Below are positions 37 through 12,860 of a stretch of 64,000 nucleotides of DNA, piece after piece. The stretch spans positions 41,580 to 105,579 of the forward strand of contig JARGNV010000004.1 in the NCBI GenBank assembly GCA_029212465.1, read 5' to 3'. Numbering within the stretch: the stretch's first letter is position 1; the number at the start of each line of letters is the position of its first letter. This DNA is from Legionellaceae bacterium. GTDB lineage: Bacteria > Pseudomonadota > Gammaproteobacteria > Legionellales > Legionellaceae. The notes under the pieces were generated by a model. It worked only from the letters and a program-made list of their open reading frames with translations, had not been told where the DNA came from and made no database searches. The position numbers and the translations under genes are program-made.

Positions 37-41
37 ACAAA
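37..41. repeat. ACAAA, candidate target-site duplication (left) of the composite unit 42-4353
   Basis: The same pentamer directly abuts the outer end of the IS remnant at 4354-4358. Five bp in AT-rich DNA is weak evidence. Confidence 0.3.
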
Positions 42-60
42 TAGAAGTTACGCATTGACA
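42..60. repeat. Terminal inverted repeat of the IS (transposase 3' side)
   Basis: Exact reverse complement of 1174-1192. A third copy with one deleted base lies at 4336-4353. Confidence 0.85.
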
Positions 61-1115
61 GCTCTCTGAAATTTCGGATTCAAATGCTCTTTAGTTTGGG
101 CAAACATTCCAATAAACGAAGCGATTACTTCATTGAATAATTCTCGGCGCAACCGATAACAATTACTGTTCATATCCATAGCTCTTAATTTCTGAAGCTC
201 CACATAACCACAAATTGAAGCAAACAAATGGTTTTTAACGGCAACTTTACTGCGAACTTGAAAGCTTTCAATATTACAGACTTGCTTGATTGCGCGGTGA
301 TATTGCTCGTTCTGCCAGTGTTGACCGTGTATTTGTTCAAAATTAGATTTGTTTAAAAGGCTAAATCTTGCTCCATCGTCGGGTGGACCTTCTTCGTTAG
401 GCAAGTGCATTGCGTAATGACGAACTTGGTCTTTTAAATTCGTCCGGAACAGCTTTACTTGCCCAAAATCACGTAACCAAACAACTAATCCATCGTCTGG
501 TATCTCCAGGGTTTGTACTTGTTGCCATGTGCCTTTTTCAATAGAAACCAGGCGATTACTTTCGAGTGCAAATAAAAATTCAAGGTGATGGTTTTTTATC
601 GCTTTTAAATTTTTTACGCAACTGTACCAACTATCGCCGGTGACACAAGCAGACTCTAGGCCCCAAGCCAATACCTCAGCCAACATTTCTAGAAAATAAT
701 CATTTTTTGTTTTGCCTTCCGCTTTGTCATAGACACGAAAATTCACGGGTTGATGTTGCCCATGAGGGTCAGTGTAATAAAGGGTTATTAGATTGATTCC
801 CTTGACCACTTTATGATGCTTTCCAGACCAATAATGGCCAACTAAGGCAATATAATGTGCATAAGGCTTATCAAGCACACTATCATCGACACTGAGCGTT
901 CCTCCTTGTAAATTCAAAGTCGGTTTTACTTCAATGAATAAATCATGTGCAGAATAAGATTCTCTGTTCAAAAACCGATTAACACTATCATGAGAAATAT
1001 CCATGACAGAAGCTAAGCGACTACAGCTGACACCTTTTGGCTCGCTTAATAGAAATTCAATATACATCGGTAATGCGCACCGTGCGGTTGATGGGCGGGT
1101 AAGCGTTCGTATCAA
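48..1115 (-). CDS. DDE transposase, IS4/IS701-like superfamily
   Basis: Candidate catalytic motifs are LSVDDSVLDK, VTGDSWYS and HWQNEQYHRAIKQ (a YREK-like signature). The track start is TTG. The frame is open to the IS end, and the first ATG is at 1067 (MYIEFLL...), so the true start is uncertain. Confidence 0.8.
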   Translation of the reverse strand: MIRTLTRPSTARCALPMYIEFLLSEPKGVSCSRLASVMDISHDSVNRFLNRESYSAHDLFIEVKPTLNLQGGTLSVDDSVLDKPYAHYIALVGHYWSGKHHKVVKGINLITLYYTDPHGQHQPVNFRVYDKAEGKTKNDYFLEMLAEVLAWGLESACVTGDSWYSCVKNLKAIKNHHLEFLFALESNRLVSIEKGTWQQVQTLEIPDDGLVVWLRDFGQVKLFRTNLKDQVRHYAMHLPNEEGPPDDGARFSLLNKSNFEQIHGQHWQNEQYHRAIKQVCNIESFQVRSKVAVKNHLFASICGYVELQKLRAMDMNSNCYRLRRELFNEVIASFIGMFAQTKEHLNPKFQRAVNA

Positions 1116-1173
1116 AATGTGCCTTCCGGTGGCGTATCTTCTTTTCTTCGAATTATCAGAAATTTTGAAGCTT

Positions 1174-1192
1174 TGTCAATGCGTAACTTCTA
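1174..1192. repeat. Terminal inverted repeat of the IS (transposase 5' side)
   Basis: TGTCAATGCGTAACTTCTA is the reverse complement of 42-60. Confidence 0.85.
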
Positions 1193-1316
1193 TAAGATCA
1201 CATTCTTGGATGAATTTAAAGTCACACGTGATCTCGCCCTGTGATTCCTGGTTGTTTTATATTTTGATTGTTGTGTATAGTGGGAGCACTAGAAAATTTG
1301 ATAAAAATATTAAGTA

Positions 1317-1487
1317 ATGTTTGATAAAGCAAAGCCAGCCAGTCATTATTCTGAACCTTCTGCATCTTTGCCTGAAAGAAAATCTAAAGTGTACCAAGCC
1401 CCTACTATAACCCCCCTTGACAACAGTGAGCCAGAGAGCGGGAGTTCAAATGTGCCCGAAACCAATGCCGGCGTATTAGAATCTTAG
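1317..1487 (+). CDS. Unannotated 56-codon ORF (MFDKAKPASHYSEPSASLPERKSKVYQAPTITPLDNSEPESGSSNVPETNAGVLES); hypothetical small peptide
   Basis: My own translation. The ORF is below the track's length cut-off. ATG is at 1317 and TAG at 1485-1487, 1 nt before the ATG of the downstream gene. There is no clear Shine-Dalgarno sequence, and a 48-codon ORF also exists on the opposite strand. Confidence 0.3.
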   Translation: MFDKAKPASHYSEPSASLPERKSKVYQAPTITPLDNSEPESGSSNVPETNAGVLES

Positions 1488-1488
1488 T

Positions 1489-3147
1489 ATGATGCCGCAA
1501 TATTCCATACGTCCCGCCGTGCTGAATGCCAGTGGTTTTTTTCAGACTAGGCTTAATTCGTCGTGCGTAATTTATAGCGCGTCACCCCATGAGTCTATAC
1601 CCATAACCTCGTTTGAAGATAGCTTAAACCCTCTGCATTACCGTACAGTATTTCATCCGTTTGCCCAAGTTATCGAAAATAAACGTACAGGTGAGCACCT
1701 TTTGGTCCGTGACCATATGGGCGTACGCCCGTTGTATTACTATCATCATTCAGACCAACTTATTTTTGGCGACACCATTCCCGACATCATTCGTCAGTTA
1801 CCCCAAGCACCAGCCTTTCTTGATTCAGAAGTAGCTCACTTATTTGGGGATGTCCAACATTATACCGACAACACGCTCTACACAGCTATTTATCGTGTTG
1901 ATCCGGGTACGATGGTTCACATTAAGCCGGATGGACACATTAAAAAATCAGTGTTTTGGCAACTAGAGCAAGAAGGTGAGACCTTACGCTACCGTGATGA
2001 GCGAAAATACCAGGAGCACTTTACTTCCCTTATGCAGGCGTCTGTCAAACATGCCGCGCAGGGCTCAGATGATTCCACCCTTGCAGCCGAGTTCAGTGCA
2101 GGCATGGATTCAACGGCTATTTATGGCACGTGTGCCGCGCTTGGGTTAAATCCAACACTGTTTATGCATGAGCCTTTATCCAACTCATCCAATGCGAAAA
2201 CCTACAACGATGTGTATGAACGTGCATTCATAGCGCAGTTTTCATCGGCCAAGATTCATCGTGTTCGGGCCGATAATTTTGACCCTCTACGTGTTTTTAA
2301 AGACTATGCCGGCTGGTTTGGGGGTCCCGCACCGTATATTTTTGAATTATTCGCGCATAATCTCCACCAAGCGGTCGGCAGAAAAGGGCATACACGATTA
2401 CTCTCGGGCTTAGGTGGCGACCAAGGGGTATCCAGTCACATTCCTGCACGCTTTATTTTACCCGAGTTGTTGCACAACAAACAATTGAACAAGGCATGGT
2501 GTGAGTCAGCGCAAACAAGCAAGCTTCGCCATATCGCGTTACTTCTTCAATGCGCTCACCCGTCTTTGCATGCCTTGATAAAGCATACTCAAGATTTAAA
2601 ACTAAACACCCGTAATCTATTCAAAAAGCCCGACCAAAGACAGGTTGCCAGCACCCATCCTTATCATCGCCACTATTTTAAAACCTTACGCGAAGTCGAA
2701 TGGTCTTTTCTTCAAGGCCCCAACAGTCATGCCATGCGTATGCGGATAGAGCACAGCAGTATTGTGGGGAAAAAAATGGGGTTTGATTACCGTTATCCGC
2801 TATTGTACCCACCTTTACTTGAGTTTTTCTTGAGCCTACCCCTCGATCAAAAACGTCATCAAGGGGTGGGTCGACACATGATGCGTCGTTATTTAGCTCA
2901 AATCATGCCATCCGTGCCGTTTCATATGTATCAAAAGAAAGAGGGCATCAATATTGTTCCCGCCACCATGGATACATTTAAGGCGCAATGGGATAGTGGT
3001 GCGTTTCAAATCGCATTTGAAAACCTGGCGTTTAAAAAACTTACCCAAGACAAATCATCTCACAAAGCCATGATAAAAACGATACAAGCGTTCATGCTCA
3101 ACGAGCGCTGCAAAATCACACACGGACATGACGGGAGAAAAGGATGA
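1489..3147 (+). CDS. Asparagine synthetase B-family (PP-loop, adenylating) protein lacking the N-terminal Cys nucleophile; lactam-synthetase/lasso-cyclase-like architecture
   Basis: It has RDHMGVRPLYYY (the AsnB-type RD..G.KPLYY motif) and FSAGMDST (a variant of the SGGxDS PP-loop). The N-terminus is MMPQYS, not MCG. The N-terminal domain is short. Length is 552 aa. Confidence 0.7.
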   Translation: MMPQYSIRPAVLNASGFFQTRLNSSCVIYSASPHESIPITSFEDSLNPLHYRTVFHPFAQVIENKRTGEHLLVRDHMGVRPLYYYHHSDQLIFGDTIPDIIRQLPQAPAFLDSEVAHLFGDVQHYTDNTLYTAIYRVDPGTMVHIKPDGHIKKSVFWQLEQEGETLRYRDERKYQEHFTSLMQASVKHAAQGSDDSTLAAEFSAGMDSTAIYGTCAALGLNPTLFMHEPLSNSSNAKTYNDVYERAFIAQFSSAKIHRVRADNFDPLRVFKDYAGWFGGPAPYIFELFAHNLHQAVGRKGHTRLLSGLGGDQGVSSHIPARFILPELLHNKQLNKAWCESAQTSKLRHIALLLQCAHPSLHALIKHTQDLKLNTRNLFKKPDQRQVASTHPYHRHYFKTLREVEWSFLQGPNSHAMRMRIEHSSIVGKKMGFDYRYPLLYPPLLEFFLSLPLDQKRHQGVGRHMMRRYLAQIMPSVPFHMYQKKEGINIVPATMDTFKAQWDSGAFQIAFENLAFKKLTQDKSSHKAMIKTIQAFMLNERCKITHGHDGRKG

Positions 3148-4148
3148 CACCAAGAGTTAAGCCCCAGCAAAACGTGCTGTTCATTGCACTTACAACCCTT
3201 GCGCTATTGCCGATGACGAGCTTTGCTCAATCAAAGCCCATCATGATCACGGATTTATTCACAAACATATCTCCAACGGAGCCTTGGCGCAAGGGACGAT
3301 TAACCGCGACAAAAACAGTCAATTTTCAGCAATCTTTGAGTGGTGGTACAGATGCTACAACGGTTGCTAAAGTACAGCTTGGTTATTTTACCTCAGCTGA
3401 TTGTACAGGGGCGTTAGCAGGCACGGGTTTTTACACAACCCCTAATGGAACATCATTTAACATCAGCGTAGGCAGCCCATTTGGGCTTGTAGCTGCGTCC
3501 ACCTGGAATGTAGGTGTTAATCAACTAGGCATAAGCACGGGGGATATGGCTAACATACAATCCGTTGCCGTGACGTTAAAAAGCACCAACAGCGATGTAC
3601 CACAGTCTAATTTTTCAAATAATAGCTTTGCTTGTGTCGCTGTGACATGTGCTACTAATGCCTGTACCTCAGCTGCTGGTACACAAATTTTTCAACTCAA
3701 AATAACAGCGGCAGTAGGTGACCCTGCAGATGGTGGGGTGATTGCAGATGTAGTAGGTCTCATTGCTACGGCGTCGGATGCTGGTAGCTATGAATGGGGT
3801 GGAAATGGCACAACAACTACCGCCCGAAGTTTTACAGATGGTGCTGAAAACACCTCAACCATCGTAACAACACTTGGTACAAGTTCAAATTACGCTGCTC
3901 TCGTTTGCAATGAGCTCTCTATCAGAGGCGGCTACACCACTGGCTGGTTTTTACCCGCCCTAGACCAGTTGTCTGCGCTGTATACGAATCAGGCGAATAT
4001 CGGTGGTTTTACCACTGGGAGGTACTGGAGCTCTACTGAGCAGAACAGCACTAAAGCGTATTTCCAGAGATTCAATAATGGCTCTCGGTTCAGTGATGAT
4101 AAGTACTTTGCCTTCCGTGTTCGGTGTGTTCGGGCTTTTACCCCTTAA
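3144..4148 (+). CDS. Secreted protein with C-terminal DUF1566 (Lcl C-terminal domain-like) module
   Basis: The signal peptide is ...LFIALTTLALLPMTSFA|QS. The C-terminus GWFLPALDQLSALY...RYWSSTEQ...FRVRCVRAF matches the DUF1566 pattern. The start overlaps the upstream stop (ATGA), and a GGAG-type SD is present. Confidence 0.75.
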   Translation: MTPRVKPQQNVLFIALTTLALLPMTSFAQSKPIMITDLFTNISPTEPWRKGRLTATKTVNFQQSLSGGTDATTVAKVQLGYFTSADCTGALAGTGFYTTPNGTSFNISVGSPFGLVAASTWNVGVNQLGISTGDMANIQSVAVTLKSTNSDVPQSNFSNNSFACVAVTCATNACTSAAGTQIFQLKITAAVGDPADGGVIADVVGLIATASDAGSYEWGGNGTTTTARSFTDGAENTSTIVTTLGTSSNYAALVCNELSIRGGYTTGWFLPALDQLSALYTNQANIGGFTTGRYWSSTEQNSTKAYFQRFNNGSRFSDDKYFAFRVRCVRAFTP

Positions 4149-4152
4149 TCCC

Positions 4153-4353
4153 TGCCGTTAAAAACCATTTGTTTGCTTCAATTTGTGGTTATGTGGAGCT
4201 TCAGAAATTAAGAGCTATGGATATGAACAGTAATTGTTATCGGTTGCGCCGAGAATTATTCAATGAAGTAATCGCTTCGTTTATTGGAATGTTTGCCCAA
4301 ACTAAAGAGCATTTGAATCCGAAATTTCAGAGCGCTGTCATGCGTAACTTCTA
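4153..4353 (+). mobile_element. 201-bp terminal remnant of the IS at 42-1192, in inverted orientation
   Basis: 4153-4353 equals the reverse complement of 42-243 apart from one substitution (GAGAGC>GAGCGC) and one single-base deletion inside the IR (TGTCAATGCG>TGTCATGCG). It begins 5 nt after the DUF1566 stop codon. Confidence 0.9.
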
Positions 4354-4608: not shown

Positions 4609-5877
4609 ATGAACCTCAGTGAATTAAAGCGATTACCTATTGCTGAATTGGTAAACATCGCGCAAGAAGCAAAAATTGATAATACCTCTCGAATGCGAAA
4701 GCAAGACATCATTTTCTCCATTTTAAAAGCACATGCCGCCAAAGGTGCCGATATTTATGGTAATGGTGTCGTCGAAATTTTACCTGAAGGGGGCTTTGGC
4801 TTCTTACGCTCTCCAGATGGATCTTATCTAGCAGGGCCCGACGATATCTATGTATCTCCCAGTCAAATCAGACGCTTTGGCCTGCGTACGGGTGATACCA
4901 TTTCAGGGAAAATTCGTCCCCCAAAAGATAACGAGCGTTATTTTGCATTACTTAAAGTTGATAAAATCAATTATGACACCCCTGAAAATGCAAAACGTAA
5001 AATCCTTTTTGAAAACTTAACCCCACTGTTTGCCTCCGAGCGCTTAGTGATGGAGCAGGGTAATGGCAGTACCGAAGACTTAACAGCACGCGTTATTGAC
5101 CTTGCTGCACCTTTCGGACTCGGTCAGCGTGGATTGATTGTTGCACCGCCTAAAGCTGGTAAAACTATCATGCTGCAAAATATCGCACACTCCATTGCAA
5201 AAAATTATCCTGACTGTCATTTAATTGTTTTGCTTATCGATGAGCGCCCTGAGGAAGTCACTGAAATGCAACGCTCTGTTAAAGGAGAAGTGGTTGCTAG
5301 TACTTTTGATGAGCCTGCAACCCGTCACGTGCAAGTTGCCGAAATGGTTATTGAAAAGGCCAAACGCTTGGTTGAGCACAAAAAAGACGTTGTGATTTTA
5401 CTAGACTCTTTAACACGCCTTGCACGCGCTTACAACACCGTAGTACCATCTTCTGGCAAAGTACTCACCGGTGGTGTCGATGCCAATGCCCTACAACGAC
5501 CCAAGCGTTTGTATGGTGCTGCACGAAATATCGAGGAAGGGGGAAGTCTTACTATCCTTGCTACAGCAATGGTTGAAACTGGCTCTAAAATGGATGAAGT
5601 TATCTATGAGGAATTTAAAGGTACGGGTAATATGGAAATCCACCTGAGCCGTACTATTTCTGAGCGTCGCACATTCCCAGCCATTAATATTAACCGCTCA
5701 GGCACACGTCGCGAAGACTTACTGCTTTCCCCCGAAGAACTCCAACGCATGTGGATTTTGCGTAAAATTCTACAACCAATGGATGAATCAGATGCCATTG
5801 AGTTTTTACTTGAACGCATGAAAAGCCACAAAACAAATGCTGAGTTTTTCGCGGCTATGAAACGCCAAGAGAAATAA
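4609..5877 (+). CDS. rho: Transcription termination factor Rho
   Basis: Full-length Rho-like sequence ([15 protein letters not shown]..., Walker A APPKAGKT, ...[10 protein letters not shown]). Confidence 0.97.
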
Positions 5878-5896: not shown

Positions 5897-7372
5897 ATGA
5901 AGTATGGTGACTTGCGTGATTTTATTGATTATCTAGAATCACGCCAGTTACTGACTCGCATTGATTACCCTGTCTCACCTTACCTTGAAATGACCGCAGT
6001 CAGTGACAAAGTCTTGCGAGATAAGGGACCAGCACTGCTTTTTACGCGCCCCTTGCATCATCAAACACCTGTTCTCACGAACCTATTTGGCACTGTTGAA
6101 CGCGTTGCTCTGGCCATGGGGCAAGAAGATATCAAGGCGCTTCGTGATATCGGACAGCTTCTTGCTGCATTGAAAGAGCCAGAGCCCCCCAAAAGCTTTA
6201 AAGGCGCCTTCCAACAACTCCCACTTTTAAAGCACGCACTCAACATGGCCCCTAAAAAAACCGAGCGGGCTGTCTGCCAAACTCACGTTTTAGAAGGAGA
6301 CGCGGTCGACCTCACAAAGCTCCCCATTCAAACTTGTTGGCCTGAAGATGTCGCACCACTGATAACCTGGGGGCTTGTCACTACAAAAGGGCCACATCAA
6401 ACACGCGAAAACATTGGTATTTATCGTCAGCAAGTGCTCAATAAAAACCAACTCATTATGCGCTGGCTTGCACACCGTGGTGGTGCCCTCGACTACTTAG
6501 CTTTTCAAAAAGAGCATCCAAAAGAGCGCTTTCCTATTGCCGTCACATTAGGCACCGACCCTGCAACTTTGCTCGCAGCCGTCACGCCAGTACCCGACAG
6601 CTTATCTGAATATGCTTTTGCAGGGCTTTTGCGCGGTAAACGTACGCATCTCACACGTTGTATAGGAAGCGACTTACATGTGCCTGCCAACGCAGAGTTT
6701 GTACTAGAAGGTTATCTTGAGCCAGGCCATGAGGCGCCTGAAGGCCCCTTTGGCGATCACACAGGTTATTATAATGAGGTTGAATCCTTCCCTATATTCA
6801 CCGTTGAGCGCATCACACACCGCCCCGACCCTATTTACCATAGCACCTATACCGGCCGCCCACCGGATGAACCTGCCATTTTAGGGCTTGCCTTAAACGA
6901 CGTGTTTATTCCGCTCTTGCAGAAGCAATTTCCTGAAATCACTGACTTTTATCTACCGCCTGAAGGCTGTTCGTATCGACTTGCCGTTGTCACCATTAAA
7001 AAACAATATCCAGGGCATGCAAAACGCGTCATGATGGCTGTTTGGTCTTTCTTAAAGCAGTTTATGTATACCAAATTTGTCATTGTATGTGACGATGATA
7101 TTGATGCGCGTAATTGGCAAGACGTTATTTGGGCCATGACAACGCGTATGGACCCTGCTCGTGATACCGTCATGATAGATAATACCCCAATGGATTATCT
7201 CGACTTTGCATCCCCGATATCAGGACTTGGCTCAAAAATTGGCATGGATGCAACCAATAAATGGACCGGAGAAACTACGCGGCCTTGGGGCAAACCTATG
7301 AGCATGGACCCCGATATTTTAACAAAAGTCAGCGACTATTGGCCTGAATTAGGACTTGAATCCGATGTCTAA
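5897..7372 (+). CDS. ubiD: 4-hydroxy-3-polyprenylbenzoate decarboxylase UbiD
   Basis: [14 protein letters not shown]...GPALLF is collinear with UbiD. Length is 491 aa, and fre follows as in E. coli. Confidence 0.95.
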
Positions 7373-8306: not shown

Positions 8307-9248
8307 ATGATCGAAAAAAATGCATTTTCCAATCCGCAACTTCAATGGAACTTCTCTTTTTTAATGTCCAAAGAGTTCTCCCATTTCTTACACCTAATCC
8401 CTGATGCCGCTATCCTCAGCACAGAATCAGGTCAAATTATATTAACCAACCAAACAGCACAAACACTCTTTGGATATACAGAAACAGAATTTCTTCAAGT
8501 CAATATTGAAGATTTAGTCCCAGAAAGCATCAGAGCTGTTCACCCAACCCTACGTGCTACATTTTTTGAAAACCCAGAGCCTAGGCTTTTGAAAAGTAGA
8601 AACTTAAAACTTACAGCCCAAAAGAAAGACAAATCACTATTCCCCATGGAATCAGCGCTATTTGCCATTCAAACCGATAAAGGACCGATTGCCGTTAATT
8701 TGCTACGAGACATCTCAATACAAAAAGCACACGAGGAAAAAATTACTCGGTATGCCTTTGTAGATACGTTAACAAACCTCCCCAACCGCCGCTATTTTGA
8801 CGACAATATCAAGCGTATTGCATCAAAAGTGCGACGAGATAACACGACGCTCGGTATTTTATATATTGATATTGATGCGTTTAAACCTATCAATGATACC
8901 TATGGGCATGAAGCTGGTGACCTTGTGCTACGCACAATAGCCGCCCGTCTCTCCAAGCTCTTACGTAAAGAAGATTTTTTATGCCGCATCGGTGGCGATG
9001 AGTTTATTCTCATCATTCACCCTATTCCTGAAACATATTATTTAGAAACAATAGCCGAACGTATCTTAACTGCATGTAACCAACTCATCCCCTTCAATGA
9101 GCACAGTTTTCATGTATCCGCGAGTATTGGCATTAGTTTCAATGATTCCTCTCAATTTGACGAACAAATACTCATTAAAAATGCCGATAAAGCGATGTAT
9201 CTTGCTAAAAAACAAGGCGGCAATTGCTTTAAACATGCCCCAAAATAA
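8307..9248 (+). CDS. PAS-GGDEF diguanylate cyclase
   Basis: PAS-like N-terminal half. Intact RIGGDEF active site with an RKED (RxxD) I-site five residues upstream. Confidence 0.9.
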   Translation: MIEKNAFSNPQLQWNFSFLMSKEFSHFLHLIPDAAILSTESGQIILTNQTAQTLFGYTETEFLQVNIEDLVPESIRAVHPTLRATFFENPEPRLLKSRNLKLTAQKKDKSLFPMESALFAIQTDKGPIAVNLLRDISIQKAHEEKITRYAFVDTLTNLPNRRYFDDNIKRIASKVRRDNTTLGILYIDIDAFKPINDTYGHEAGDLVLRTIAARLSKLLRKEDFLCRIGGDEFILIIHPIPETYYLETIAERILTACNQLIPFNEHSFHVSASIGISFNDSSQFDEQILIKNADKAMYLAKKQGGNCFKHAPK

Positions 9249-10425: not shown

Positions 10426-11850
10426 TAATGCCAGTCAGTTAAGCTGACTGGCATTTTTATTTTCTCTTTTAGTAGGATATTTTTGAGGCCTTCGCTTTAC
10501 AACCCTTGGATAATTCCTCTCTCGCTTATCAGGTAAAACAAAGGCTTTTGCCATGTTCACCATATCACTCAATACTTTGGGTATTTTTCCTGGCGAAACA
10601 CTTGGTAACACAGTTAGTTCCCTGATTATATATGCTGACGCTTGATTAAAACTAAGCTGATTAAGCTCTATTCCATCAATAGAATATGCCATTCTCGCCA
10701 TTTGGAAGCGAATGAGATTATATGCCAAAAGAACACCCCAAAGTTCTTGGCGTATCATATCAGGCTTTTTACTTCTTAAGGTTAAGCGGTTTTGTAATAA
10801 ATATTGCTTCATTTCTCTATATCCAAGCTCTATTTCCCATCGCTGGCTATACAAACTAACTATATCTGCTGCTGGAAAGCGCATTGGATCAACCATAGAG
10901 GTTAGCATTTGAATAGTTTTTCCATTGACAGATTTTGTTAGCAGTCGAGCCGTAATTGTATCTGGCAAATCTGGCCATTTTTTTCTTGCCTGTGGGCACG
11001 GAGTTAACTCAATAATTTCTTGGTCTTTACCAAGCCGCCGTATCACTTTGTACTGCCGGTTTTTCTTTAATGGGATCAGCCAGTGTCGCTGTGTTCCGGT
11101 GGTGTGCCATCGGTGAAGTAACCCGAGAGAGTAAAAGCCTTTATCAAACACTGTTAGCGAGTGATCTGGCGTTTTATCAATAAGGTTTGCAGCAAGTTGC
11201 ATTTCATTAACTTCCACACTTGCAAATGAAGAGCCTGTAAGTAAATGGCTTGTCAGCTCCATCTGACAGACCATACGTACCTGCGGATAATCTGACTCGC
11301 TTACTTTGTTGCGAGTTCTCGAAAATGCCTTTTGATTTTCAGGTGAATCAGGAGTACGCCAAACAACGCCATCAACACCTAGCAACTTTAGGCCGCACCA
11401 GTTTGGATGGGGAGTTTGGTTGTTCCACAGAGCTTGAGTCTGTTCAAACACCTCTTTAACTGGCTCTTCTCCAAGGCGCTGTCTAGCTTGAACAACAGCA
11501 CTTGGAGCAACAAAAGGCCGATTTCCCGGAAGAACAATATCCAATTGATTAACAATTTGATTCATTGGTATGTGACGAAAAAGGGCCATGCCTACTACAC
11601 TCCAAACCATCATTTCTAAGGGCAAACGCCTTTTTCTAATCGTGACTGTTCCACTTCGATTCAAACTGGATTTTATTAAATCAGGAGATAAGTATTCGGA
11701 TAAACTTTGAAACTACTCTGAAGAAAATGATTGAATGCTATCTAAAGCTTGACTTAAAAACATAAAAAAAATCCGGTGACCTTACGATCACCAGATTTTG
11801 ATCTGATTTGCCAATTTTGCAAGTAGTTTTTACTTAACTGACAGGCATTA
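10426..11850 (-). mobile_element. IS4-family insertion sequence (1,425 bp)
   Basis: The IRs are TAATGCCAGTCAGTTAAG (10426-10443) and the reverse complement of 11833-11850 (TAATGCCTGTCAGTTAAG), a 17/18 match. There is an 11-bp TSD. Size, IR length and TSD length match what I recall for E. coli IS4. Confidence 0.85.
10435..11763 (-). pseudogene. IS4 InsG-like DDE transposase with an in-frame TAG at codon 17. The track ORF 10435-11664 is the TTG-initiated remainder.
   Basis: It has [16 protein letters not shown] (YREK) and [18 protein letters not shown]. The ATG at 11763 is in frame with the track ORF: MFLSQALDSIQSFSSE-TAG(11713-11715)[26 protein letters not shown] to stop is 443 codons. Confidence 0.75.
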
Positions 11851-11861
11851 CCCTACTTGGG
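11851..11861. repeat. 11-bp target-site duplication CCCTACTTGGG (right)
   Basis: Identical to 10415-10425. Confidence 0.8.
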
Positions 11862-12860
11862 GCTTTTTTCATGTATCAACGCCATTACAACATCTGGTCT
11901 ATCGGTAATAATGCCTTCAACCTGCATGTTAAGCATCTCTTTTGTAAGCGGAACATCTATGTCCATGCCGGTGCGATTAGCATCGGACCATGTCGCAACT
12001 TTCAAACCAAGCGCATGCGCACTATCCAAGTAGGCTTGTGTCATTTCCGCATCTTCAGCGTCCCACCACGCCCCCCCCAATGCTTTGATCATTTCAGGAA
12101 CAGAATTATGATAGTCTTTAAGTAAATATCCCCCGGTCCACTGACCTGCAATAGCAGGTGCACTGTGCCTCAATGTTTTTTCGTGTGCCACATCCGTTAG
12201 ATAAGCTGTTTCTACTGTAGGATTCAATTGCTGTAACAATTGCAAACAACGCCAATCATACGCTTGCACCTTTGTTCTATCCGAAACCCCTTCTGCTCTA
12301 ATCACAGCATCTACTGCGTGCGCCATTGCCTCAGGAGAAGCACTCAAATGAGGCTTGGTTGGGTCGGTTTTCAACTCTATCTGAAAACCAACAGGATAAG
12401 GTGCCGCTGCCTTCATCTCTCGAATCACAGCCTGCAAACTAGGAATTCGAGTTCCATCAAGTGGTTTTTGAACTGCGTAAATGGCTGCGTAATCCGTCAA
12501 TGGCTTGATGCGGCCCACATCATACTGTTGTAACGCTTTAAATGTTAAATTCTTGACAGCTATATCCGCTGCTTCAACCCAGTTCCCTCTGACATCTCTC
12601 GCAATTTCTGGGTCTAAAGTTAAACCATGATGTGCAACTAAAACATTATCTTTGGTCAATACAACATCTACATCCACATAATCGACTCGATGTGCTATAG
12701 CAACATGGAATCCTGGTAATGTATTCTCAGGTGCAAGCCCCCGCGCACCGCGATGCCCATAAACCGTTACACTCTCAGCAGGCAAGGCCACTAAGCATAA
12801 ACCAGCACATAATAAGTGCCGAAAAAATGTTATGAAACAATGTTGCATGTTATTAATCAC
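11853..12860 (-). CDS. Glycerophosphodiester phosphodiesterase family protein, secreted
   Basis: GDPD motif VYGHRGARGLAPENTLPGF and an N-terminal hydrophobic signal. Confidence 0.85.
   Translation of the reverse strand: MINNMQHCFITFFRHLLCAGLCLVALPAESVTVYGHRGARGLAPENTLPGFHVAIAHRVDYVDVDVVLTKDNVLVAHHGLTLDPEIARDVRGNWVEAADIAVKNLTFKALQQYDVGRIKPLTDYAAIYAVQKPLDGTRIPSLQAVIREMKAAAPYPVGFQIELKTDPTKPHLSASPEAMAHAVDAVIRAEGVSDRTKVQAYDWRCLQLLQQLNPTVETAYLTDVAHEKTLRHSAPAIAGQWTGGYLLKDYHNSVPEMIKALGGAWWDAEDAEMTQAYLDSAHALGLKVATWSDANRTGMDIDVPLTKEMLNMQVEGIITDRPDVVMALIHEKSPK

Follow-up and report, generated by a model that had tools for sequence, protein, structure and literature searches.

A putative lasso-peptide module paired with a DGR-type secreted protein in a Legionellaceae genome

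Three intact, tightly packed open reading frames (ORFs) of 56, 552 and 334 aa lie on the + strand of a 64,000-nucleotide stretch of DNA from a Legionellaceae bacterium (the whole stretch being referred to as the window), where they form a module contained in segment 1194-4152. We read this module as a lasso-peptide precursor (A) and its cyclase (C), paired with a secreted DUF1566 protein (V) of the kind varied by diversity-generating retroelements (DGRs), a combination which recurs in Legionella-like bacteria. The probability of this overall reading is put at roughly 0.78, and the segment is most likely a three-gene accessory module of a lasso-peptide system specific to the Legionellales. The stop codon of A lies 1 nt ahead of the ATG of C, and the stop codon of C overlaps the start of V (ATGA), with a Shine-Dalgarno-like GGGAGA site 7 nt upstream. 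An earlier reading of the window, made from its letters without database searches (hereafter the sequence-only reading), had pointed out this overlap, which was confirmed as were all of its other sequence-level statements. Loci from other genomes and metagenomes are given L numbers.

The cyclase-like enzyme and its predicted precursor

C combines a reduced, Cys-less domain of the N-terminal nucleophile (Ntn) type (approximately residues 1-165) with an ATP-pyrophosphatase domain. It starts with MMPQYS, and since an in-frame stop codon is found directly upstream, no Met-Cys start can be restored. Such a start is found in 0 of 30 aligned homologues, all of which are 515-555 aa long (31-sequence alignment, including the window). 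Both RDHMGVRPLYYY and the PP-loop SAGMDS of C fall on invariant or nearly invariant columns of this alignment; the RDH.G..PLYY block and the PP-loop pattern S-x-G-x-D-S are invariant or nearly so within the family, the conservation is full-length, and C keeps every family-invariant residue.

Searches with the profiles named in the sequence-only reading gave a match to Pfam Asn_synthase (E 2.6e-11, 44.2 bits for a cutoff of 21) and a fragment only of GATase_7 (residues 58-97), the best NCBIfam model being that of the lasso cyclases, NF033535 (136.7 bits, E 1e-39). The asparagine synthase model TIGR01536 scored lower (82.6 bits, cutoff 267.1), and the AsnB model NF006949 gave 22.8 bits (cutoff 499). 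Against both the lasso-cyclase and the AsnB profile, the alignment of C begins with its residue 58 at profile position ~123; C is thus ~65 residues shorter, in agreement with the short N-terminal domain noted earlier. The AlphaFold model of C (pLDDT 91.3) was matched over its full length by TsnB9, beta-lactam synthetase, carbapenam synthetase and AsnB in Foldseek. According to this model, C is of the two-domain AsnB/beta-lactam-synthetase fold with a reduced, non-catalytic, non-glutaminase N-terminal domain. With this domain shortened and Cys-less, C is predicted to be an enzyme that cannot hydrolyse glutamine, and the earlier description of a Cys-less amide-bond former of the AsnB type is supported.

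A database search returned 197 homologues of C, the named sources of which are Legionella, Legionellaceae, Legionellales or gammaproteobacterial metagenome-assembled genomes (MAGs). In the GTDB-representative genome collection the clade is limited to 14 loci, all of them Legionella-like, after which the next matches fall to 27% identity. The best match in that collection (71% identical) is L003, which together with L004 (69%) represents two copies of the module in one MAG. As judged from these comparisons, C is a member of a Legionellales-only clade of short lasso cyclases which is missed by current curated models. The larger clusters in which orthologues of C are embedded are listed in Table 1, and the genes predicted there are those of a kinase-tailored class II lasso cluster, with a PqqD-like B1 protein, a transglutaminase-like B2 protein and a kinase. 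We consider it likely, from motifs, profiles and orthologue context, that A is a lasso precursor and C its cyclase. Among the enzymes named in the sequence-only reading, the lasso cyclase (McjC type) is therefore the favoured candidate, with the upstream small ORF as its substrate.

In L003 (3231-5129) a second AsnB-like gene, of canonical length, was observed just ahead of the A-C-V genes. Its 632-aa product begins with MSGICGLY and reaches 412 bits on NF033535, with an alignment that sets in at profile position 1; L003 therefore carries two different types of predicted lasso cyclase.

Peptides of the A family are encoded directly upstream of C or V in at least 14 distinct loci, and their common motif is Y-x-x-P-x-[LIV]...G-x4-P-E...G-[LV]-L-(E)-S-stop. 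What stays constant is the leader Y/W-x-x-P-x-[LIVM], one Gly, Pro and Glu at six and seven residues beyond it, and Ser as the last residue. The leader form is present in the family peptides matching the scan, those of A-V pairs included, and L015 (YLPPLT) departs from it at the last position. Leader motifs of the YxxPxL type are bound by PqqD-like B1 proteins, i.e. by the recognition elements (RREs) of peptides that are made on the ribosome and modified after translation (RiPPs). The C-terminal part of A reads KVYQAPTITPLDNSEPES-GSSNVPETNAGVLES in the window, LVYQPPTLTRLEDCDIAT-GDSNVPENNNGLLES in L003/L004 and KTYHPPMLVPLLSSEPEG-GGVNVPEASTGVLES in L086. Between loci, the conserved residues show only synonymous codon variation (L003 and L004 differ in 7 of 33 codons, in each case synonymously, with 0 nonsynonymous differences), which argues that the peptide is translated and under selection. 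A 39-nt degenerate pattern of A had 1 match in the window against 0 expected, and the motif as a regular expression, run over ~100 loci, occurred only in the family loci, L051 and L058, and once in the window. The predicted core fits the expectation for lasso peptides of a Gly, Ala, Ser or Cys at the start and an Asp or Glu at position 7-9, its Gly1 and Glu7 being conserved across at least 14 peptides. We infer a Gly1-Glu7 ring because this Glu is the only universally conserved acidic residue.

Several other peptides came up in the searches for A. A full-library phmmer search with the 56-aa peptide returned four genuine A-like peptides; its top matches, P0241 (1052 aa, 12 perfect tandem repeats) and P0245 (213 aa, repeats), were rejected as compositional artefacts, and a word-index search with the same peptide gave no candidates. 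The peptide-derived DNA pattern had 7 matches in metagenome contigs, two of which (L088 and L092) were discarded as chance matches inside unrelated reading frames. The end of an ORF in L094 (4228-4266, - strand), QNVPENPTGLLES-stop, fits the core pattern, but a YxxP leader and the expected Gly are missing and neither C nor V is close by; this ORF, which may be a degenerate copy or a chance match, was left unclassified. Small peptides were also observed beside distant AsnB-like genes in L051 (Emticicia sp., 6202-6469, - strand, two in tandem) and L058 (Pelobacter MAG, 11816-11908, + strand). They have a W-x-x-P-E leader, a Gly, a [P/D]-E pair and a C-terminal Ser, and are likely lasso precursors from other phyla; the signature may be a general one for Ser-terminated lasso precursors across phyla.

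Table 1. Features of the module and its borders in the window, and loci in which orthologues of C accompany further lasso genes
Feature	Position	Strand	Basis or content
Complete IS701-family element	41..1193	-	transposase ORF 48-1115 (- strand), NCBIfam NF049921 378.8 bits
Imperfect terminal inverted repeats of IS701 element, 39 nt	41-79 and 1155-1193		blastn, exact-match search
Promoter-like TTGACA-16-GATAAT inside IS701 element	1179-1152	-	
Predicted lasso precursor A, 56 aa	1317..1487	+	motif and synteny
Leader motif YQAPTI of A	1392-1409	+	type YxxPx[LIV]
Predicted 15-residue core of A, GSSNVPETNAGVLES	1440-1484	+	core Glu7 codon 1458-1460; C-terminal Ser
Short-N-terminus lasso-cyclase-like macrolactam synthetase C, 552 aa	1489..3147	+	profiles, orthologue context, fold
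PP-loop SAGMDS of C	2095-2112	+	
Secreted two-domain protein V, 334 aa	3144..4148	+	profiles, fold, DGR orthologues
Predicted signal peptide of V	3144-3227	+	MTPRVKPQQNVLFIALTTLALLPMTSFA followed by QS, judged by eye
Last ~45 residues of V	~4011-4145	+	homologous to variable region of DGR targets
Partial IS701 copy	4153..4353	+	inverted relative to full copy; terminal ~200 nt
L001/L005 (C 58% identical to window)			Transglut_core3 (B2), HPr-kinase-like, sulfotransferase, PqqD (B1), ABC transporter; 45-aa ORF directly upstream
L002/L009 (C 45% identical)			PqqD, Transglut_core3, NTP_transf_5, ABC transporter, kinase; two 53-aa ORFs upstream
L015 (C 44% identical)			order A-PqqD-C, plus kinase; B2 not detected
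L003 (C 71% identical)			B1, kinase, B2 ~6 kb downstream

The secreted protein and its pairing with the peptide

The sequence-only reading had recognised V as a secreted protein with a DUF1566 C-terminus, and the modelled C-terminal fold agrees with this; the signal peptide was judged by eye only. In Pfam, Lcl_C falls just below its threshold (31.7 bits against 34.9), and the match to Fib_succ_major is weak. The AlphaFold model (pLDDT 89.4) has two domains. The N-terminal one is modelled as a beta-sandwich resembling fimbrial/pilin proteins, and the C-terminal one was matched in Foldseek to the C-terminal domain of Lcl (8q4e, target-normalised TM 0.75, 24% identity), with C-type-lectin-like domains and 4eps also among the matches. 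What had been missed is that V very probably belongs to a family of DGR variable proteins (CLec2/DUF1566 type). Besides the homology of its C-terminus to the variable region of DGR targets, the 36 members of the V family have a fixed C-terminal scaffold (YWSSTE..AW..F..G.Q....K....RVRC.RAF) with hypervariable positions in between. DUF1566 and Fib_succ_major make up a known category of DGR targets, exemplified by Legionella (PMC5758913). No members of the V family were found in viral contigs.

In L003 and L004, the orthologue of V is followed by a DGR cassette in the order target - bAvd - template repeat (TR) - reverse transcriptase (RT). The bAvd matches PF22296 (E 5e-21), the RT matches RVT_1, and the TR is a 131-140-nt repeat of the 3' end of V, which is 88-90% identical to the variable region (VR). 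The differences between VR and TR fall on TR adenines in 15 of 17 cases for L003 (binomial P 3.5e-7) and in 12 of 13 for L004 (P 3.4e-6), and in both loci the 3' boundary has the usual G-to-C switch and the VR is followed by a GC hairpin. Judged by this pattern of changes, both DGRs are active or were so until recently. No TR, Avd or RT was found in the 64 kb of the window, where an IS701 fragment stands at the place at which L003 and L004 carry the hairpin, bAvd, TR and RT. V is therefore probably no longer diversified in the window, its copy there being frozen.

Between the DGR and the B1-kinase-B2 genes of L003 (10703-13414) lie a DUF772 transposase gene and a second RT (RVT_1, 372 aa, - strand), possibly of the group II intron or retron type.

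The order A-C-V is found in six distinct loci with differing flanks (the window, L089, L003, L004, L001/L005 and L006). The sequence-only reading had made its case depend on such a linkage of the enzyme with DUF1566 proteins or small ORFs, and neighbourhood analysis finds it conserved in other genomes. The order A-V without C was found in L084/L085, L086/L087/L091, L093/L095/L096 and L097/L098, via the closest homologues of V and a separate metagenome scan with the peptide-derived DNA pattern; none of these pairs has a DGR cassette nearby. An A-like gene adjoins V, on the same strand, in each distinct V locus whose DNA could be read. In L090, a human oral metagenome contig of 2681 bp, the order is reversed, V being followed by an A-like peptide gene (...YESPTLTILDTLDIETGSMNVPENSNGLLES). 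Conversely, C can be embedded in a cluster without V (L002). As far as gene order tells, the conserved unit is A with V, and C is found between them in a subset of loci. The A-V pairs without C, together with cluster-embedded C without V, argue against a modification of V by C and for a functional connection of the peptide with the lectin-like V. The earlier suggestion that the enzyme might act on the co-encoded secreted protein is therefore not supported (A-V pairs without C in L084, L086, L093/L095 and L097, and C without V in L002).

From this synteny, we lean towards a functional coupling of A and V, which could be that of a binding partner, a cofactor, a regulator or a carrier. A more specific proposal, which we regard as tentative and rather doubtful, is that the lasso peptide and the lectin-like V form a two-component extracellular system. 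In such a system, the conserved, acidic and probably phosphorylated peptide would be a fixed ligand, cofactor, cap or anchor of the adhesin-like V, the other face of which would be diversifiable by the DGR. The kinase and sulfotransferase of the clusters would make the peptide strongly anionic. The C-terminal domain of Lcl binds sulfated glycans, which is a lead for the A-V link and not a result. If true, the two-component proposal would make this the first case in which a RiPP is functionally coupled to a DGR variable protein, and it would explain why precursor genes are dispersed in Legionellales genomes, each beside its own paralogue of V.

Some further observations were made around these loci. 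L090 has ~1 kb downstream without a recognisable gene, and is an odd source for Legionella-like sequence. Toxin-antitoxin-like pairs occur near lasso/V modules in L004 (275-779, 84 and 88 aa), L099 (19034-19628, PhdYeFM/ParE), L095 (PIN/MazE) and L097 (HigB/HTH), and phage-type integrases are found near the modules of L084 and L097, which fits a mobile, island-like setting.

Insertion-sequence setting, maturation and rival explanations

The trio fills exactly the gap between a full copy of IS701 and an inverted partial copy which holds the C-terminal codons of the transposase and the terminus of the insertion sequence (IS). The two copies are 99% identical (42-243 against 4353-4153 in blastn; 188 nt at 99% in a repeat search). 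As IS701 sequence brackets the trio at both ends, the IS-borne, accessory context proposed in the sequence-only reading stands. The IS sequence ends 123 nt upstream of A and the IS fragment begins 5 nt past the stop codon of V; homology to relatives begins only within the coding region of A and ends exactly at that stop codon. Housekeeping genes follow downstream of the fragment, with rho at 4609. A look-up of the exact V sequence led to a 2.4-kb Logan contig, which is broken at the IS copies. An extra IS copy at 11501-12000 was considered and rejected, as this block has no sequence similarity to block 1-500 and differs from it in dinucleotide counts; their identical base counts (A155 T152 C106 G87) are a coincidence.

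By analogy with the AsnB, beta-lactam-synthetase and lasso-cyclase families, the chemistry of the module may be pictured as follows. The PqqD-like B1 would bind the YxxPx[LIV] leader of A, and the PP-loop domain of C would adenylate the side-chain carboxylate of core Glu7, which would then be captured by the free alpha-amine of core Gly1 to give a 7-residue isopeptide ring with an 8-residue tail. The leader would be removed by B1 and B2, which would have to be supplied in trans. With its invariant Ser at the C-terminus, A matches, by analogy, the kinase-tailored lasso class (paeninodin, pseudomycoidin and SyanA), and in precursors of kinase-bearing lasso clusters this residue has been described as "extremely conserved" (PMC9266682). 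V would be exported by means of its Sec signal peptide and, in L003 and L004, its C-terminus would be rewritten by bAvd, TR and RT.

Several points weigh against the reading of a lasso module paired with V. No homologue of B1, B2, the kinase, the sulfotransferase or NTP_transf_5 was found in the 64-kb window, either by tblastn with all accessory proteins of L001 and L002 as queries or with custom hidden Markov models of B1, B2 and the kinase, for each of which three sequences were used. The NF033535 score of C (136.7 bits) is far under the curated cutoff of 525 bits; cluster-embedded orthologues score equally low (130-155 bits), so that the sub-threshold score appears to be a trait of the clade, which this cutoff misses. 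Distant members of the clade (39-44% identity; L007, L010, L012, L014, L099 and L101) stand alone without A, B or V, among housekeeping genes, and a lasso system cannot be demonstrated for every member. The Gly1-Glu7 ring is assigned solely from the universal conservation of one acidic residue, and in L001 the spacing is one residue shorter, which would give a 6-residue ring and makes the exact register or ring size uncertain. At leader position -2, where Thr is usual, the window departs from the pattern, having P-E-S before Gly1, and several relatives have Thr at -1 (ETG, ATG); non-Thr exceptions at the penultimate leader position are reported in PMC10368454. Finally, the link between A and V is one of synteny alone.

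The absence of B1 and B2 from the window, which the sequence-only reading had overlooked, means that maturation would take place in trans from another locus, or that the module is stranded. ATP-binding cassette (ABC) matches at 13.6-14.2, 46.5-47.1 and 53.5-54.9 kb were rejected as lasso exporter, since they amount to a generic nucleotide-binding domain with ~30% identity. In one MAG (GCA_021156105.1), a full cluster is present on one contig (L002/L009) and a separate A-V pair on another (L097/L098), so that one genome can have a complete lasso cluster and, apart from it, a dispersed A-V pair. Processing of A in trans is plausible in the organism of the window, given this MAG, the retention of the leader motif in dispersed precursors and the precedent of pseudomycoidin. 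The latter comes from a kinase/nucleotidyltransferase-type cluster and has a C-terminal Ser, and its macrolactam synthetase alone makes the product in vivo from a core supplied without leader (PMC6993621).

The opposite outcome, in which an IS701 rearrangement cut A-C-V from its lasso cluster and DGR cassette and left a remnant without mature product, is suggested by the IS sequence at such short distance from both ends of the trio, by the limits of homology inside A and at the stop codon of V, and by the lack of B1, B2, kinase, Avd, RT and TR in the 64 kb. We hold it to be unlikely, since all three ORFs are intact and C retains all family-invariant residues, purifying selection still acts on A-V or A-C-V modules that are distant from B genes in several other genomes, and one MAG has both a dispersed pair and a complete cluster, by which processing in trans would be normal for this system. 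The pseudomycoidin precedent, and the fact that the window, L006 and L004 all have A-C modules with no B genes close by, could also mean that C cyclises A without dedicated B1 and B2, a housekeeping protease removing the leader. This is less probable still, as B1 and B2 accompany the orthologues wherever a larger cluster is visible, and the leader motif is kept in A, also in A-V pairs, which argues for continued recognition by B1.

Translational coupling through ATGA and the adjacency of C and V in six loci would be expected if C modified V, by amidation or cross-linking, and the upstream ORF were incidental. The occurrence of V and A without C in at least four distinct loci, and of cluster-embedded C without V, makes this very improbable; moreover, V has a Sec signal peptide, C has none and is from a cytoplasmic enzyme family, and A shows the features of a lasso precursor and conservation of its protein sequence. 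An ordinary glutamine-dependent AsnB with a mis-called start, a case raised in the sequence-only reading, would account for the Asn_synthase and partial GATase_7 matches. It is refuted by the alignment and the context, i.e. by the upstream in-frame stop, the lack of Met-Cys and the uniform length in all 31 members, the low TIGR01536 and NF006949 scores and the orthologues in lasso clusters, and we give it practically no weight.

Comparison with known systems

The preferred reading, a lasso module A-C paired with a DGR-type V, is closest to the kinase-tailored class II lasso systems (paeninodin, pseudomycoidin and SyanA/SyanK of Sphingobium), with which it shares an AsnB-like cyclase, a small precursor with invariant terminal Ser and, in the orthologous loci, split B1 (PqqD) and B2 (transglutaminase-like) proteins, an HPr-kinase-like kinase, NTP_transf_5 and an ABC exporter (PMC9266682). 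It differs from them in the N-terminally shortened cyclase (by ~65 residues) with its score of ~130-155 bits on the NCBI lasso-cyclase model, in the missing Thr at leader position -2, in an unusually conserved core (G-x3-V-P-E...G-L-L-E-S), in the lack of B1, B2, kinase and exporter in the 64-kb window, and in the dispersal of A genes and their pairing with a secreted protein of lectin-like type. Beta-lactam synthetase, carbapenam synthetase and TsnB9 resemble C in their two-domain AsnB fold, non-glutaminase N-terminus and ATP-dependent carboxylate activation. However, their identity to C is only 11-16%, they act on small molecules and no gene of their pathways is present; the context of C points instead to a ribosomal peptide substrate.

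For V, the nearest system is the LdtA DGR of L. pneumophila, in which a C-terminal C-type-lectin-like domain of DUF1566/Fib_succ_major type also bears the variable region; L003 and L004 further share with it the order target - bAvd - TR - RT, the adenine-specific changes and the GC hairpin after the VR (PMC5758913). In contrast, the window is without TR, Avd and RT and has an IS fragment in place of the post-VR hairpin, the signal of V is Sec type-I-like and not of the lipoprotein or twin-arginine translocation (TAT) kind, and upstream of V there is a lasso-precursor gene, whether or not a cyclase gene is present too, of a kind not described among DGR accessories. With the Lcl adhesin V shares the fold of the C-terminal domain (8q4e), but collagen repeats are lacking (NF046116 gives 31.1 bits for a cutoff of 500, and matches no more than the C-terminal 70 residues), the N-terminal beta-sandwich is a different one and the C-terminal segment is hypervariable.

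C and A can be placed within the lasso-peptide kind, where they make up a new clade marked by a shortened cyclase and by a core of unusual conservation. The literature searched contained no description of lasso clusters in Legionella and no mention of lasso peptides together with diversity-generating retroelements, and the sole Legionella entry in PMC9576775 is a graspetide. The conserved pairing of the peptide with V thus appears to be undescribed, and the sequence-only reading was right not to recognise it as a described system. It gives the lasso and DGR fields each a concrete partner to test, the questions being whether V binds the peptide and whether the peptide alters lectin binding. To our knowledge, the physiological roles of most lasso peptides are unknown, as are those of most chromosomal DGR variable proteins, Legionella LdtA included. 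That precursors can be scattered away from their processing genes matters for genome mining as well.

Elsewhere in the window, the ORF at 8307-9248 has a GGDEF motif (RIGGDEF) behind a sensor-like N-terminus and codes for a probable diguanylate cyclase, unrelated to the module.

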